Source of the DNA: a virus
Taxonomy: Duplodnaviria; Caudoviricetes
DNA: 64,000 bases
Direction: 5' to 3' (one strand)
Virus record (IMG/VR): IMGVR_UViG_3300037067_016777
Coordinates: 32,001 to 96,000 of that record
The stretch's first letter is position 1. Every line of letters starts with the position of its first letter. Shown piece by piece: positions 2,280-32,164 of this stretch. The notes below the pieces were generated by a model. The model was not told the origin of the DNA, ran no database searches, and saw nothing but the letters and a program-made list of their open reading frames with translations. The position numbers and the translations under genes are program-made.

Positions 2280-2328
2280 TGTTCAGTCAAAGGTGCTTTT
2301 GAACGGTAATGGTAAGGTTGGTGACCAA

Positions 2329-4380
2329 ATGAAAATCTCAGAGCTCCGTAGTGCGATCGATAGAGCTTCGCAGCTCTATTACACTCTTGGCACGATCTCA
2401 TCAACCTCAGATACCGAGTATGATGTGTTGATGGACGAGTTGAGGCGATTAGATCCATCAGATCCTCGACTAACTAGAATCGGTCCCCCATATTCTGCTG
2501 CTGATTTCGCTGCCAAGAAACAACACCTAATCCCAATGGGGTCTCTCGATAATACTGATGGTGGTATTAGTGGATTTGCTAGTTGGTACGACAAGACTTG
2601 TGCTCTGCTCGGTGTCGAGAGTTTCACGATCAACGCTTCCTTGAAGATGGATGGCAACAGTGTTGCGTTAAATTATGAAAAAGGTATGCTTAAGGAAGCG
2701 ATCAGCCGTGGAAACGGTACCGAAGGTTTGGATATCACAGCAAATGCCGTAAAGTGGATGGGCGTTCCGACCTGCTTGCCAGTCACATTCACTGGTACGG
2801 TCCGTGGCGAGGCGATTCTCTACAAGGCCGAATTTGACGCGATGAAGGAGAGCGACCCGACACTCACCAACCCCAGGAATGTGGGTAGCGGTATTCTCGG
2901 TCGAACTGATGGCACACAGAATGAACTGATTCGTTTTGTCGCTTTCAACATCGTCGATCCGAAGACGGGTTTCTCCTCTTTGAGCACCAAATTCAAGGTT
3001 CTTGAGAGGCTCGGTTTCAGTCCAGTACCACATATCGTCATCAGTGGTGATCATCGCCAAGCCATCATCAAATCGTTTGAAGACAATTTCGCTGAGACGG
3101 AAGCGCAACGCCCGATGTTGCCTTTCGAGATCGATGGCGTCGTGGTGATGGTCGATGACGTTCCAGCACAGAAATCGATCACGAAGGACCGAAAGGATGA
3201 GCTACGACCGAAGTATGGTCGGGCTGTGAAGTTCGTCACCGCCAAAGCACAAACGACAGTGACCGGCGTCACCATCACCATGGGCCATACCGGCTCTATC
3301 ATCCCAACGGCGATTCTTGAGCCGGTCTTCGTCGGCGGCGTCACTGTCACCAACGTCCTGCTCAACAACTGGAACGCGGATAGCGAAGCTCCATCAGCCG
3401 CTCATGTCGCAATCGGCGACACTGTTGAGATTGCCAGGCAAGGCGACGTCATCCCGAAGATTGTCCGCGTCATCGATCGTCCATCCGATCGCCAGCCGAT
3501 TGAAGAGCCGAAAGTATGCCCCGTCTGTGGCTCGCCGACAACAAGGACATTGCGAGACAAAGAAGGCGTCGTCACCTACTGCACGAACGCTGACTGCGGC
3601 GGTGCATCGGTCAGCAAGATCAAGCACTACATCGGAAACTCCGACAAGGGTGCTGGTATCATGGGCGTCGGCGATAGTGTTCTCGAAGCACTCACGAGCA
3701 ACGGACTTGTCACAACACCCGGCGACCTTTACCGGCTCAAAGCTGAGCAGTTGATTGATTTGCAGATCGGCACGAGCAAGAGCGGTACGCCAATCCGGCT
3801 CGGCAACACCAGAACAAACAACCTTCTCGCCGAAATCGAGAAGTCCAAGCAACTTCCGCTCACTAAGTTCCTTGGCGCTCTCGGCATTTCGCTGCTCGGT
3901 CGGCGTCGTGTCGAAATCGTCGCCCAGGAGCAAGGACTGACGACGCTTGAGGATTGGTTGAATGAAGAGAAACTCGCCACGATTCCCGGTGACGTGATAC
4001 GGAAGACGATTATCGATGGGCTGCAAAAGGTGCGGCCCGTCATCGACGATCTGCTTGCCGTTGGCATCGTTGTTTCGCCTGTTGTTCCTATCGAAATCCT
4101 GGAGACTACAACCGTCGCAACGGCCGATGACGGCGTGATTGGTCCCAAGCAGATCGCTGGCAGCACGTTCTGTTGGACTGGCTGCCGCGATTTTATCGAT
4201 GAGGTTGTTGCGAGGGGTGGTGTCGTGAAGAGCGGTGTGAGCAAAGGACTCCATTATTTGGTGCAGAAAGATGCTACGTCATCGTCTGGTAAGACCTTGA
4301 AGGCCGAAAGCTACGGCACGAAAATCATCAGCATCGACTGTCTGCGTGAAGTCCTTGACGGTCTTCGAGAGCTGCCATAG
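2329..4380 (+). CDS. ligA: NAD-dependent DNA ligase
   Basis: SDTEYD, KMDG adenylation motif, NPRN, EIDGVVV, GDVIPKI, C4 zinc finger, C-terminal BRCT (SGVSKGLHYLV); start assumed at ATG 2329. Confidence 0.95.
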   Translation: MKISELRSAIDRASQLYYTLGTISSTSDTEYDVLMDELRRLDPSDPRLTRIGPPYSAADFAAKKQHLIPMGSLDNTDGGISGFASWYDKTCALLGVESFTINASLKMDGNSVALNYEKGMLKEAISRGNGTEGLDITANAVKWMGVPTCLPVTFTGTVRGEAILYKAEFDAMKESDPTLTNPRNVGSGILGRTDGTQNELIRFVAFNIVDPKTGFSSLSTKFKVLERLGFSPVPHIVISGDHRQAIIKSFEDNFAETEAQRPMLPFEIDGVVVMVDDVPAQKSITKDRKDELRPKYGRAVKFVTAKAQTTVTGVTITMGHTGSIIPTAILEPVFVGGVTVTNVLLNNWNADSEAPSAAHVAIGDTVEIARQGDVIPKIVRVIDRPSDRQPIEEPKVCPVCGSPTTRTLRDKEGVVTYCTNADCGGASVSKIKHYIGNSDKGAGIMGVGDSVLEALTSNGLVTTPGDLYRLKAEQLIDLQIGTSKSGTPIRLGNTRTNNLLAEIEKSKQLPLTKFLGALGISLLGRRRVEIVAQEQGLTTLEDWLNEEKLATIPGDVIRKTIIDGLQKVRPVIDDLLAVGIVVSPVVPIEILETTTVATADDGVIGPKQIAGSTFCWTGCRDFIDEVVARGGVVKSGVSKGLHYLVQKDATSSSGKTLKAESYGTKIISIDCLREVLDGLRELP

Positions 4381-9093: not shown

Positions 9094-9348
9094 TCAGAAC
9101 CCATTCCTTTCTAGCCAGTCGACTTCAGCTTGTAGTGCGTCGGACCGTAGACGATATGGCCCTAGTTTCGGCCCGTTCACCGGCGACAAATCGGCCACCC
9201 AATTCACTTGCTCGCCACCATCGATAGGCTCGACATGGCTAGCACGTCTGATGGTGGTTTCGCCCTCATCGTAGAGAGTGACAAGGGCATCGTTGTGGAT
9301 GGCCGCAATGCTGCCGTCAGGTTTGATCGCAAGGCTAATAGCTGACAT
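9094..9348 (-). CDS. small conserved protein of the DUF1257/DUF2997 module
   Basis: IRRASHVEP...WVADLSPVNGPKLGPY.LRSDALQAEVDWL, recalled as the neighbour of DUF2997 genes. Confidence 0.7.
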   Translation of the reverse strand: MSAISLAIKPDGSIAAIHNDALVTLYDEGETTIRRASHVEPIDGGEQVNWVADLSPVNGPKLGPYRLRSDALQAEVDWLERNGF

Positions 9349-9517
9349 GATTCTGCTGCGGCCTTTCGTACATTTCCGGTGTGTCTTTGTCTGTGGAGAC
9401 GGTCCCGAGAGCCTTTTCGACGGCTTTCGTAACGTCTTTGCAGGATTGGCCCTTCACGCCGTTGACTTCGATTTTCGGCGTCCCGTCCGGAGAGACTGTG
9501 ATCGTGATTGTCTGCAT
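9335..9517 (-). CDS. DUF2997 family protein
   Basis: ITITVSPDG.PKIEVNGVKGQSC.DVTKAVEKALG...TPEMY. Confidence 0.85.
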   Translation of the reverse strand: MQTITITVSPDGTPKIEVNGVKGQSCKDVTKAVEKALGTVSTDKDTPEMYERPQQNHVSY

Positions 9518-9526
9518 GGTGTACTC

Positions 9527-9970
9527 CTACTTCATTGCGACCAAGCGGACATCGCCGGTCTTTGCGTCAGCTTTTTCGGTAACGTGCCACCCTTGGCTCT
9601 GCAACGTTCGAGCGGCGACGGCAACACCGTATCGCTGCTTAAGCTTTTGCATTCCTTGGCCGAATACCTTCGCCAAGCCACCGGGACCCCACTCGTCGGC
9701 AACGACCACGAATGATCCGTTTGGTTGTTTGACCAGGCCGATGTCGTAATTGCATTCCGGATGCGTGATGACGTGATCACACTTGCCGTAGTCTTTCGGA
9801 CTGATGCCCTGCTTGTATGCGGCATTGTCCGCACTGTAATCGTTCATCCAGCGACCATACCACCGGAAGGTTTTCTGGTCTCGGACGAGCTCAGCACCAA
9901 GAAACCTCGCGGCGACTTCCAGTGCTTTCAGGTCCCTTACTTCGAGTTGAATCGTGACGACGTGTGACAT
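9527..9970 (-). CDS. DUF1257 (Ycf35-like) protein
   Basis: MSHVVTIQLEVRDL.AL..A...YDIGL...DEW...LKQRY. Confidence 0.8.
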   Translation of the reverse strand: MSHVVTIQLEVRDLKALEVAARFLGAELVRDQKTFRWYGRWMNDYSADNAAYKQGISPKDYGKCDHVITHPECNYDIGLVKQPNGSFVVVADEWGPGGLAKVFGQGMQKLKQRYGVAVAARTLQSQGWHVTEKADAKTGDVRLVAMK

Positions 9971-10236: not shown

Positions 10237-11199
10237 TTATTCGTCCTCCTCGTCTTCGTCATCGCCCAGATCGATCGCTCTGGCTGGCATATCACGCAAC
10301 AACTTATCCAGATTCTCCTTGACAGTTGACATACGTTCGGCGACGACAGTAGCAATTCCCTCGTCTCCCTTGATGGATTCCGGAGTCTGCCCAGAAAGAA
10401 CTTCTTTGGCTTCGTCGGCAAGCAGCGCAAGCTCCTTGTCTCCGCAGACGTTGCGGGCCGAGAATAGCTCCAAGAAATCGACGATCTTGGTGATAGTGGT
10501 CGTGGCGAATTGCTTCCGCTTTCCGTTCGGCTGCGGAGACAGCCGATCAACGAGGTGATCGACAAGTTTCTTCAATCCAACCCTCAAGGCTGCCTTGATT
10601 TGAAGGGCCATGTCCTTGATTTCGGTTGCCTGTCGGTTCCTTTCCTGATGGGCAATCGCCTTGCTTACCTTCTTGTCGCTGGAGGGCGACCAGTCGAACC
10701 AACGCCGTTCGACCCAGAACTTGGCACGGAGAGCGTTGCGACCAGCTTCGGTGCTCACATCGAAATAATTCGATGCAAGAAATTGATCTTGCAACTCGAT
10801 TTTGGCTTCCTCTACCAAGTCGGCGTATTCGGCGACGAAGTGATCAGCCCACTTATTGTAGGCTTGTTCGGCGTTGGTGATCTTGTCATTGAGGTCATCA
10901 ACGAGCGGCAGCGGGACCAGATGCGTCCCTTCGGAGAATGGAGAGCCTGGGACTTGTCGCTTGACGGCGTAGCGGCGCATGTCTCGGGCGATGAAGAGCA
11001 ACTGCTCGTAGTTATCGCTCTGTAGGATTTTCTTGCTCAATCCGAGACGCTGTTTGTTTGCAATCGTCTGGATTTTTGCAAGGTTCCCTGTCCGGATGAT
11101 GCCGGTCTTGTGAAACCGAAGCAGCAAACAGGTCGTTAATTGGAGGACGTTTGCTGTTTCTTTGGCGTCTTCGGATTGAGCGGTTTCGATGGCGGTCAT
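10237..11199 (-). CDS. DUF3150-like helical protein
   Basis: LSKKIL...PF.EGTHLVP...LVDHLVDRLS...GKRKQF...FLELFSARNV...LDKLL pattern; has its own promoter and RBS. Confidence 0.65.
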   Translation of the reverse strand: MTAIETAQSEDAKETANVLQLTTCLLLRFHKTGIIRTGNLAKIQTIANKQRLGLSKKILQSDNYEQLLFIARDMRRYAVKRQVPGSPFSEGTHLVPLPLVDDLNDKITNAEQAYNKWADHFVAEYADLVEEAKIELQDQFLASNYFDVSTEAGRNALRAKFWVERRWFDWSPSSDKKVSKAIAHQERNRQATEIKDMALQIKAALRVGLKKLVDHLVDRLSPQPNGKRKQFATTTITKIVDFLELFSARNVCGDKELALLADEAKEVLSGQTPESIKGDEGIATVVAERMSTVKENLDKLLRDMPARAIDLGDDEDEEDE

Positions 11200-11265: not shown

Positions 11266-11550
11266 TTAGCGGGAGAGTGGCTCGAACTGTAGCATATCTC
11301 GGAAGCTTTGGTGCCAGATACGCCGATTGTCGGGAGGGAAGATGACCGGACCGAACCACGGCGAAACGATAGTCCAATAGCCCAATTCTACTCCCCTCTC
11401 ATCGAAGAAATAAACGATGGAGGTAAAAGGCTCTTTGGTTTCGTTACCGGAATACCAGTTGCGGCCGGTCAAGGTTCCACAACCAACTTGGGTGGCTCCG
11501 AGAGCCTTAAATTGTTCGATGATTTCGTAACTAACCTGATTTGCGAACAT
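11266..11550 (-). CDS. hypothetical protein
   Basis: AAGGA RBS; fits between a terminator and the next promoter. Confidence 0.6.
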   Translation of the reverse strand: MFANQVSYEIIEQFKALGATQVGCGTLTGRNWYSGNETKEPFTSIVYFFDERGVELGYWTIVSPWFGPVIFPPDNRRIWHQSFRDMLQFEPLSR

Positions 11551-11634: not shown

Positions 11635-13200
11635 TCAGACGTGCAAAGCCCGATTGGGCTCATTGTTTCCCGGCAGCTTATAGACGCCTTCACGACTCGC
11701 GGACAAATAGCGTTCGTTCGCCGACTCCCGCAGCCGCTTGATTTCTTCCCGATCGGTCATACCAACGGGAGTGATGTAGGTGGCGGCTTCGGCAATCGGA
11801 ATGTTCATCCGGAACGCCTTGTCGCAGCAATGCTTGATGTCGCGAGCAGCCCATTTGTCGTCGTCCTTGAATGGCTTATCATCAAGCCCGTACTTCTTGA
11901 GGAGCACATCCCAGATTGGGCGACGTTCGACCTTCGGCGGTAGATCGAAGAAGAAAATGTCGGTGAATCGAGACTTCATTGCCCCCGATAGGCCGTCGAT
12001 GCTGTTGCTCGTGGCCAGCCACAGCGTTTCGTTGCCGCCGATAGCTTGCACGACCTTCAACGCCGACCGAATGAGGTTCTGGCTCTGGCCGACCAAAGAG
12101 CCCTGCATCGCACCAAGATCGATCCGGATAACGACGCGATCAAACTCGGCTCCGACTGCCTTGCAGATGGCCGACTTACCGCAGCCGGGAACACCTAGCA
12201 ACATGACACCGAACACATCAAAATCTTCCATCCAGGAAAGCAGCGTGCCTTCCTGGTCCTGATTGACGCCGCTCGTATCGCCACGAGCTGCCAAGCCGGT
12301 CTTCTCGATTTCGTCCAACCAGACGATAAGCTTGGGTTGTTTACGGCCGGTCATGATGCGGCTCAGGTAGGTCTTGATTTGGTCGAGGCCACCGAGATCC
12401 GTGAACTTCTCACCGCCACGATGGATCGAGAGTCCTTTCGTCTGTTCGACTTGCTTCCGCTTTGCAATCCAGCAATGCTCAAGGTCGATGCCACTCGCTG
12501 GGACCTGCCCTTCGACGGTCTGCGGACGTAAAGCCATTGCCACGACCTGTTCGGCTCCGAAGTATGGGAGGCCCTTAACGGCTTCGACGACGCGATCGAC
12601 CGCCTCGTCGCTCGCCAACGGCCGCTTCTTCTTGATGCCGGTCCCACCACAAACCTTGCAGCTTTTCAACCCATCACAGTCACAGAGGCTGACTTGTGCA
12701 TCGAGGTCCTTGACGCACTTTGCCAATTGCTCCTCGTTGGGCATCGGCTCTTCGATGATGATGACGTCGTTCTTGAGGCTCGCCGGAAGTTGGATTGTGT
12801 CGGCAAGCAATACGAGAGTGCAGCACGCCCGTTTGAAATCGTCGCGAAGGTTCCAAACGGCCTGACGGACAGTGGGGTTGTCGAGCCAGTCCGTTGCAGC
12901 TTGCATCGCGATGATGGAACCGCTCGGGATCAGGCTCAGATCTGAAATCGCCTTCAGGAAGCCAAAGGGCGACAGGGTGTTCAAATCGTCGTTCAGTGTG
13001 GCCACCGTTTTGGTGGCCATCTTGTTGTAACCATTCACGCCGCTGGCAGAGTTCCACATCATTAGCGCGGCATTCCGTGGGATTTCGCAGCAGTCCTTGA
13101 GGAGCGTCTGTATCGTGGCGGCAGGGTCAGAACATTCGATGCCGATGAGAGGCACACCAGCCTTGCGAGCAGCCAAAAATTGTTCAGTGAATGTTAACAA
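11635..13200 (-). CDS. Ycf46-like AAA+ ATPase with permuted Walker motifs
   Basis: DLGGLDQIK, IVWLDEIEK, GVPGCGKS, IDLGAMQGSLVGQSQ, ATSN, SRFTDIFFFDLP; TTG start after ACAGGAGA. Confidence 0.9.
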   Translation of the reverse strand: MLTFTEQFLAARKAGVPLIGIECSDPAATIQTLLKDCCEIPRNAALMMWNSASGVNGYNKMATKTVATLNDDLNTLSPFGFLKAISDLSLIPSGSIIAMQAATDWLDNPTVRQAVWNLRDDFKRACCTLVLLADTIQLPASLKNDVIIIEEPMPNEEQLAKCVKDLDAQVSLCDCDGLKSCKVCGGTGIKKKRPLASDEAVDRVVEAVKGLPYFGAEQVVAMALRPQTVEGQVPASGIDLEHCWIAKRKQVEQTKGLSIHRGGEKFTDLGGLDQIKTYLSRIMTGRKQPKLIVWLDEIEKTGLAARGDTSGVNQDQEGTLLSWMEDFDVFGVMLLGVPGCGKSAICKAVGAEFDRVVIRIDLGAMQGSLVGQSQNLIRSALKVVQAIGGNETLWLATSNSIDGLSGAMKSRFTDIFFFDLPPKVERRPIWDVLLKKYGLDDKPFKDDDKWAARDIKHCCDKAFRMNIPIAEAATYITPVGMTDREEIKRLRESANERYLSASREGVYKLPGNNEPNRALHV

Positions 13201-31495: not shown

Positions 31496-32164
31496 ATCAG
31501 GCACCCACAGACGCTTGTCATCTGCCCATTCAGGGATTAATAATTCACGCTTTCGCGTGAACCACAAAAGAAGTTTCGTTGCACGATCGGCATTTGCTTT
31601 ACTGATGCGACCGCACCGAAGCGTAAACGACGCTAGCTTTTGAGCGAGCGAATCGCGGCCGTCTTGGTTGAGCATCATTGTGAAAGGCTCGACATAGTTA
31701 ACTGGTCGTTCTGATTTCTGCAGCGATGTTGCTAAGAATCGGCGAAATGTGGTCATATTGCCGATGGAGACGGCATTGGCGTAATGGTGCGCTGCTTCGA
31801 AAGCTTCCTTCCGTAGCATTTCACGTGCTTCCTTATGCTCGTTGGACCATTCGCTGTGGCGGGCGAGAGCGTTTCGGCCCATGGCGTTGAACCCACCGCG
31901 AAACGCGCCGTCGATACGCATTTTTCGCTCCCACCAGTTCACTTCATAGAGTGTTGGGGTGGGGATAAATAGTTCAGTCTGCAGGCTCGTCTTGGCGACG
32001 GCTTCGCTGTGGCCATTGCCCATCTTGGACAAGTGCAACCACTGACCGAACTTGCGCAGCCATTGCCCGAGTTTAGAAATGCGTTGCTCGGTCGGTGTGC
32101 CAGATGAGCGGTCGTCATCGTCGTGATCAGGATATTGGACAATACTATGACACGGTTCGCACAT
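31493..32164 (-). CDS. hypothetical protein
   Basis: promoter 32189-32218 and AAGGAGA RBS. Confidence 0.7.
   Translation of the reverse strand: MCEPCHSIVQYPDHDDDDRSSGTPTEQRISKLGQWLRKFGQWLHLSKMGNGHSEAVAKTSLQTELFIPTPTLYEVNWWERKMRIDGAFRGGFNAMGRNALARHSEWSNEHKEAREMLRKEAFEAAHHYANAVSIGNMTTFRRFLATSLQKSERPVNYVEPFTMMLNQDGRDSLAQKLASFTLRCGRISKANADRATKLLLWFTRKRELLIPEWADDKRLWVPD

Follow-up and report, generated by a model that had tools for sequence, protein, structure and literature searches.

The window analysed here, 64,000 nucleotides (nt) from positions 32,001 to 96,000 of the IMG/VR virus record IMGVR_UViG_3300037067_016777, contains a gene at 11635-13200, on the minus strand, that encodes an AAA ATPase in which the Walker B motif precedes the Walker A motif. 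The question this locus raises is whether such an order, which runs counter to that of the AAA family as a whole, is real and, if so, how it arose and whether the enzyme could still work. The open reading frame (ORF) is 521 amino acids (aa) long and has a TTG start codon, and its first residue is the same in homologues. An earlier note, made from the sequence alone, had read the order of motifs as a rewired AAA fold in which the Walker B segment has been moved, and that reading is supported by what follows. We consider it very likely that the protein is a classical-clade, Ycf46-like tandem AAA protein with a degenerate first domain (D1) and a second domain (D2) that has a functional core but in which two blocks, A and B, have exchanged places. 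D1 (residues 1-252) would then be a nucleotide-free AAA domain and D2 (about residues 255-500) the catalytic domain.

Order of motifs and the exchange of two blocks

The motif order and coordinates given in the earlier note proved correct when the translation was read, and the occurrence of Walker B before Walker A in the window protein is confirmed. D2 opens with the N-loop F.DLGG and helix alpha0 (residues 262-288, nt 12337-12417, minus strand as are all features of this gene), where FTDLGGLDQIK corresponds to residues 266-276, and a short new linker leads from there to the moved strand. Segment B (residues 289-329, nt 12214-12336) comprises the Walker B strand, the pore-loop-2 region GDTSGV and helix alpha3, all ahead of Walker A. 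Walker B itself, IVWLDE, is found at residues 292-297 (nt 12310-12327), within IVWLDEIEK (residues 292-300), and includes D296 and E297; it is followed by the GDTSGV loop and then by a helix with LLSWMED. Segment A (residues 330-391, nt 12028-12213) comprises beta1, the P-loop, alpha1, beta2, pore loop 1 and alpha2. The Walker A stretch is GVMLLGVPGCGKS, with GVPGCGKS at residues 336-343 (nt 12172-12195) and K342 as its lysine, and Walker B thus lies about 45 residues N-terminal to Walker A. Pore loop 1, LVG (residues 369-371, nt 12088-12096), is located between beta2 and alpha2, with a long helix next.

The remainder of D2 is in the normal order, with sensor 1 N399 followed by R411. Strand beta4 and sensor 1 (TLWLATSN, nt 12004-12027; strand 392-398 in the AlphaFold2 model described below) come first, then the arginine finger R411 (nt 11968-11970) in the second region of homology (SRH), which aligns with the SRH of paraplegin and spastin and is followed by FFFDLP. 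The C-terminal helical lid of D2 extends over residues 423-500 (nt 11701-11934; helices at 423-494 in the model). Hence the domain has what defines a classical AAA protein, namely a Walker A motif of the form GxxGxGK[ST] (GVPGCGKS), an hhhhDE Walker B motif that is homologous to the Walker B segments of normal-order cousins, a polar sensor 1 residue and an SRH arginine finger (N399 and R411), and pore loop 1 (LVG, in which the first position is aliphatic, as it is in SLVGQSE of JP1_048, one of these cousins). It lacks the colinear order of Walker A, Walker B, sensor 1 and arginine finger.

The normal-order cousins are Agrobacterium phage JP1 gp048 (JP1_048, AAA-ATPase), Mycobacterium phage Corndog gp96 and Streptococcus satellite Javan368_0002, which are annotated in the sources as belonging to the SpoVK/Ycf46/Vps4 family. 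They are full-length homologues of the window protein, with a degenerate N-terminal AAA-like domain and an active C-terminal AAA domain, and they share with it the signatures hhWhDEh.K, GD.SG, LVG.S and FFFDLP-like. However, the cousins have Walker A ahead of Walker B, and their blocks A and B are not exchanged. To our knowledge, Walker A precedes Walker B in every AAA protein described.

The earlier note predicted two out-of-order partial profile matches, and these were seen in three comparisons. With phmmer, paraplegin (2qz4) was matched by residues 331-353 of the query at chain positions 41-63, by residues 263-331 at 72-141 and by residues 391-439 at 145-195. A hidden Markov model (HMM) was then built from 70 JP1-like proteins, a normal-order sample picked by similarity to one query, and it matched the window protein in four pieces, the two middle ones exchanged. 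HMM positions 18-290 fell on residues 3-281 (E 5.6e-15), positions 369-405 on residues 292-326, in segment B (E 0.013, 8 bits), positions 309-365 on residues 331-387, in segment A (E 1.3e-15), and positions 414-464 on residues 393-444, the piece with beta4 and sensor 1. The reciprocal search, with an HMM of the permuted family against normal-order proteins, gave the mirror-image exchange, which was also found in Corndog gp96 and Javan368_0002. Finally, when residues 289-329 and 330-391 were exchanged in silico, the blastp score against JP1_048 rose from 58.5 to 90.9 bits.

From the exchanged HMM pieces, the reciprocal search and the in silico reversal of the swap, it follows that an ancestor with the arrangement pre-A-B-post became pre-B-A-post, and that the Walker B segment of about 40 aa was moved intact ahead of Walker A, as the earlier note had claimed. 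The exchanged blocks are 57 HMM positions (A) and about 38 (B). At the joints there are new linkers of about 10-12 residues (between alpha0 and beta3), 3 and 6 residues, the last two being medians, and the ancestral linker of about 18 residues between alpha0 and beta1 is gone. The chain of D2 would now run alpha0, beta3, alpha3, beta1, alpha1, beta2, alpha2, beta4, alpha4, beta5. The simplest origin would be that A-B was duplicated in tandem and the outer copies were then lost. Because the motif order is exchanged, Pfam covers only part of the permuted proteins; Pfam AAA (PF00004) scores 54.8 bits with the window protein (cutoff 21.2), and its best stretch places profile positions 1-53 on residues 332-384. 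NCBIfam profiles gave weak local matches only.

Spread and conservation of the permuted family

The window protein is not alone in its arrangement. A word-indexed search recovered about 909 relatives, and 955 representatives of clusters formed at 50% identity were found at E < 1e-30. There were 172 relatives in bacterial contigs (one genome per species), mostly from Bryobacteraceae and other Acidobacteria, Nitrospira, Planctomycetes and Gemmatimonadetes, and the complete chromosome of Nitrospira moscoviensis includes two copies. In IMG/VR, relatives were found on 207 contigs. The same order with B before A was also present in gp103 of the cultured Tunturiibacter phage Tunturi_3, which is annotated just as 'ATPase'.

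A search for homologues with the same motif order had been proposed in the earlier note. When the normal-order HMM was applied to 239 sampled members, 237 had B before A and the remaining two gave a match to segment A alone. In sequences where simple regular expressions catch both motifs, Walker B precedes Walker A by 43-50 residues. In two alignments, one with 16 and one with 148 members (33-91% identity), the sequences run colinearly with that of the window protein. E297, K342, N399, R411, G339, G271 and G371 are invariant in the 148 sequences, and D296, S343, V370 and T397 are at least 90% conserved; the catalytic residues have therefore been kept, as the earlier note stated.

Relatives of 690-900 aa carry inteins in the P-loop or just before sensor 1. 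P-loop inteins are inserted at G339/C340 or K342/S343 (in P0013, P0014, P0070, P0076, P0086, P0090, P0180, P0188 and P0209), and those near sensor 1 at T397/C398 (in P0139 and P0232). At the P-loop intein site, the +1 extein residue is the cysteine of the GCGKS found in this lineage.

Fold of the second domain and alternative explanations

Structure prediction, which the earlier note had put forward as a check, gave a confident and AAA-like model. AlphaFold2, run with the 148-sequence alignment, modelled the window protein with a predicted local distance difference test score (pLDDT) of 94.4 and a predicted template modelling score of 0.88. In D2, the model has alpha0 at residues 273-284, the moved strand at 291-295, a helix at 312-326, beta1 at 330-336, alpha1, beta2 at 356-360, alpha2 at 370-388, beta4 at 392-398 and beta5 at 412-418, and the domain reaches five core strands only when the moved strand is counted. 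In searches with Foldseek and VIA-align the whole chain matched the tandem AAA proteins p97/Cdc48, NVL and Rix7 (E 1e-13; Z 18.5 over 402 residues). D2 (residues 258-507) was superimposed on p97 D2 with a root-mean-square deviation of 2.4 A (198 aligned residues, Z 17.2), and its matches to p97 D2 and Vps4 are at 2.4-3.1 A.

Whether the strand position is conserved was examined by co-evolution, using mean-field direct coupling analysis (DCA) of 387 sequences from the permuted family only (effective number of sequences, Neff, 303), in which the top 200 of 18145 residue pairs were counted. The moved strand (beta3') made five pairs with beta4 (0.8 expected) and four with beta2 (0.6 expected), and was thereby placed between these two strands; beta1 made four pairs with beta4 and two with beta5. 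No pairs were found among the top 200 for beta3'-beta5, beta1-beta2, beta2-beta4 or beta2-beta5. The strongest pair, P289-A386, joins the start of segment B to the end of alpha2, which corresponds to the covalent junction of alpha2 and beta3 in the ancestor. The pair E297-G336 ranks 47 of 18145 and puts the glutamate beside the P-loop. The pairs G270-G339 and T267-K342 tie the N-loop of D2 to the P-loop, and the contacts between alpha3' and alpha2, as well as those between both pore loops, are canonical.

The only sheet order that fits these strand pairs is 5-1-4-3-2. By this indirect route D2 would have the sheet order of ASCE ATPases, with Walker B beside the P-loop and sensor 1. The three-dimensional core would then be unchanged, the Asp-Glu of Walker B would still be next to the P-loop and sensor 1, and only three short loops would have been rewired. 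As the catalytic residues are conserved, D2 is probably an active ATPase. The protein would form a ring, hydrolyse ATP and remodel protein substrates, or thread them, through its conserved pore loops.

Of the alternatives to an active core assembled in cis, the one that survives best is that D2 is a pseudo-enzyme that merely binds nucleotide, or that it works in trans, with the DE segment domain-swapped into a neighbouring subunit. In DCA, a contact inside one subunit looks the same as one made with a neighbouring subunit, and D1 of the same protein indicates that this lineage tolerates dead AAA domains. However, the joint invariance of E297, K342, N399 and R411 is as expected of a working hydrolytic site, and the AlphaFold2 monomer is confident over residues 289-329 (block-mean pLDDT 85-97, with the minimum at the 301-310 loop). 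A domain-swapped arrangement is further argued against because the link from helix 312-326 to beta1 is about 3 residues, which, going by the canonical AAA fold, fits packing in cis and would be too short to reach another subunit. Inteins typically sit at conserved, functionally important sites, and those of the relatives target the P-loop and sensor 1. We regard this alternative as unlikely.

A second possibility is convergence, in which the canonical Walker B was deleted and an unrelated acidic strand upstream was recruited in its place. It draws on the weakness of the match between segment B of the window protein and the normal-order HMM (see above). However, segment B of two relatives, P0261 and P0116, falls on HMM positions 368-406 with E values of 4e-9 to 5e-9, and the E values of the reciprocal search were 1e-8 to 1e-5 for all the normal-order sequences examined, with 2.5e-11 for Corndog gp96 and 6.9e-10 for Javan368. 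Segment B also retains the cousins' entire signature hhhhDEh.K...GD.SG....LL.W, and undoing the swap adds 32 bits to the pairwise score. Convergence is therefore very improbable.

An artefact of assembly or annotation, by which this one contig would have been mis-joined or locally rearranged, can be given next to no credence: the window is drawn from a metagenomic virus record, but the same order recurs in the 237 relatives, which represent hundreds of independent assemblies, complete chromosomes and a cultured phage genome, the AAA reading frame is intact with invariant catalytic residues, and Logan contigs from different studies (groundwater and landfill) cross the joint between B and A (at about nt 12212) and that between A and the following part (about nt 12026) with zero differences and no joints reported. 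Mis-assembly was rejected on the family-wide conservation and these bridging contigs. The check at the joins raised in the earlier note was thus borne out by independent contigs at two of the three joints; the third, between the preceding part and segment B (about nt 12336; nt 12325-12346), was in none of the public contigs listed.

The reading that we prefer, a block exchange within a Ycf46-like protein that left the catalytic core functional, also has points that weigh against it. The lack of contigs over the third joint is one of these, though it was counted as evidence neither way. The DCA alignment is modest (Neff about 303) and, as noted, blind to the difference between contacts within and between subunits. 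The likeness of the window protein to Ycf46, which we assume here, comes from source names, Atlas cluster names and general background. No duplication intermediate of the form B-A-B was found among the 239 family members.

Known systems, the first domain and the conserved module

Ycf46 of cyanobacteria and plastids is similar in length (about 500 aa) and has the canonical motif order, and an Atlas neighbour cluster is named ycf46-like. Ycf46 is a cellular protein, whereas the permuted family is found on phages and mobile elements. The best structural matches across both domains are p97/Cdc48, NVL/Rix7 and AFG2, with sequence identities of 13-20%. Type II AAA proteins have two nucleotide-binding domains and an N-domain. 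The window protein has two AAA folds but differs from them in three ways: it is without the N-terminal substrate-recruiting domain, as the chain begins directly at D1 (model residue 1-2 aligned to p97 residue 209-220), its D1 is without nucleotide motifs, and the connectivity of its D2 is permuted.

Among P-loop nucleoside triphosphatases there is a precedent for a changed motif order with the fold kept, namely the circularly permuted GTPases YjeQ/RsgA and YlqF/RbgA. These belong to TRAFAC and have a circular permutation of the whole domain (G4-G5-G1-G2-G3), whereas the window protein is of the ASCE/AAA type, with an internal exchange of two blocks and unchanged domain termini. Full-text literature searches on permuted AAA or P-loop ATPases, on Walker B preceding Walker A and on DUF1257, DUF2997 and DUF3150 found no description of such a protein. 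A conserved internal block exchange in a classical AAA ATPase would be new, permuted P-loop GTPases being already known in another class.

The order of Walker A, Walker B, sensor 1 and arginine finger has been treated as fixed in AAA+/ASCE ATPases, and it is taken for granted in domain models and annotation pipelines. That a large natural family departs from it with all catalytic residues kept indicates that the AAA core tolerates re-threading. The family amounts to a natural experiment in which folding can be studied, as can the bearing of connectivity on the coupling of pore loop 2, Walker B and the P-loop, and it offers protein engineers a validated site for splitting or permutation.

D1 (residues 1-252, nt 12445-13200) is an AAA-like domain with a helical lid. 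In the family alignments it has no GK[ST], no Walker A lysine and no DE, and since the structural match is to tandem AAA proteins, the N-terminal half is best seen as a degenerate AAA domain, a point that goes beyond the earlier note. Its homologue in the normal-order cousins is their N-terminal half, as seen in the first HMM piece (positions 18-290 on residues 3-281). The motif WNLRD.FK is conserved in D1, and R119, D120 and K123 are invariant.

Between the D1 core and the lid there is a four-cysteine insert, CDCDGLKSCKVCGGTG (CDCDG...CKVCGGTG, residues 173-188, nt 12637-12684), and the DnaJ-like CxxCxGxG insert mentioned in the earlier note is therefore present. It was found in 32-37 of 394 family members, several of which have two full CxxCxGxG motifs, as in DnaJ. 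Given this limited distribution, it is predicted to be a lineage-specific, DnaJ-like zinc motif.

Also beyond the earlier note, the AAA protein is the product of the lead gene of a conserved module. Five genes follow it on the same strand. The first, a 94-aa ORF between the AAA and DUF3150-like genes (nt 11266-11550), is an insertion specific to the window phage; it had no homologue in 159 related loci and no match in Pfam, PHROG or PADLOC. The second (nt 10237-11199) encodes a DUF3150-like helical protein of 320 aa, with a weak match to Pfam DUF3150 and an acidic C-terminal tail, DDEDEEDE. Its AlphaFold2 model (pLDDT 87.5) has long helices round a small sheet and resembles DUF3150 phage proteins in BFVD (template modelling score, TM, 0.71-0.77). 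Neither a fold match (best Foldseek E 0.058) nor a sequence match was found for it in the PDB, and the modelled fold may be one that has not yet been solved experimentally. A protein of the Corndog-like phage Dylan resembles it weakly. The third gene (nt 9527-9970) encodes a 147-aa DUF1257 (Ycf35-like) protein (PF06868, E 3.6e-9), which has no sequence match in the PDB, and the fourth (nt 9335-9517) a DUF2997 protein of 60 aa (PF11211, E 5.7e-15). The last (nt 9094-9348) encodes an 84-aa protein with no family assignment.

Among the 135 loci with enough downstream sequence, a DUF3150-like gene is found downstream of the AAA gene in 126, DUF1257 in 123, DUF2997 in 94 and homologues of the 84-aa protein in 45, and the module occurs in two main gene orders. 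The neighbourhood of the window gene is thus that of Ycf46-like phage AAA genes, which have DUF2997, DUF1257 or DUF3150-like genes nearby. In Tunturi_3, DUF1257 and DUF2997 genes are near gp103, and in JP1 a DUF2997 gene is downstream of JP1_048. As JP1_048 has the normal order and also precedes a DUF2997 gene, the module is older than the swap. The swap would have arisen once, in an ancestor already working with DUF1257, DUF2997 and DUF3150-like partners. The AAA protein would act with or on the proteins encoded downstream, early in infection.

In cyanobacteria, DUF2997 and Ycf35 form a conserved gene pair (PMC4284462), and ycf35 and ycf46 were lost together in red-algal plastids (PMC5940233). 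Through the permuted family, phage modules are linked to ycf46, ycf35 and DUF2997, genes of plastids and cyanobacteria that have long been unexplained. We incline, by a modest margin, to the broader view that this is the first recognised natural AAA+/ASCE family with a non-canonical core order, fully functional and of a single Ycf46-like origin, which has spread among many bacterial phyla via their phages and mobile elements and drives a Ycf46/Ycf35 (DUF1257)/DUF2997/DUF3150 machine, as its motor, that is shared with cyanobacteria and plastids. Tunturi_3 and its Tunturiibacter host are a cultured pair in which the machine could be studied.

We also considered whether the protein is a known anti-phage defence ATPase. 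In PADLOC the AAA protein gave only P-loop-local matches, to IetA (E 5.9e-8, residues 332-381) and to TRIP13, and none of the module partner proteins was matched. With neither full-length similarity nor the partner genes of these systems, IetA and TRIP13 were rejected.

The IMG/VR virus record from which the window comes is 269 kb long, and on account of this length we take the source to be a jumbo phage. Two relatives at 72-76% identity are on IMG/VR viral contigs of 364 kb and 388 kb. No RNA datasets with the AAA gene stretch were among the matches listed. The G+C content is 0.50-0.54 at about 2-18 kb of the window and 0.41-0.47 over most of the remainder; the high-GC block includes the AAA module, many small genes and an NAD-dependent DNA ligase gene (2293-4380).

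In some genomes the module is multi-copy, with at least five contigs in Bryobacter sp. Bin_54_2 and several in other Bryobacteraceae metagenome-assembled genomes (MAGs; L009-L088). Its repetition within Bryobacteraceae genomes and its two loci in the complete Nitrospira moscoviensis chromosome suggest that prophages or other repeated mobile elements carry it. In Lignipirellula cremea, an ORF of 212 aa directly upstream of the permuted gene (L002:7292-7930) encodes a normal-order AAA+ protein (GEPGVGKS ... VVIEELD ... VIATSN); it was rejected as a member of the family, being an unrelated small ATPase. This locus adjoins a type I restriction-modification system and a transposase. On a Gemmatimonadetes MAG contig (L001), genes for Ku, an ATP-dependent DNA ligase, RadC and a Mom-like protein are found upstream of the permuted AAA module, and DUF4007, PAPS-reductase and aminotransferase genes downstream, a setting that looks like a mobile or defence island.

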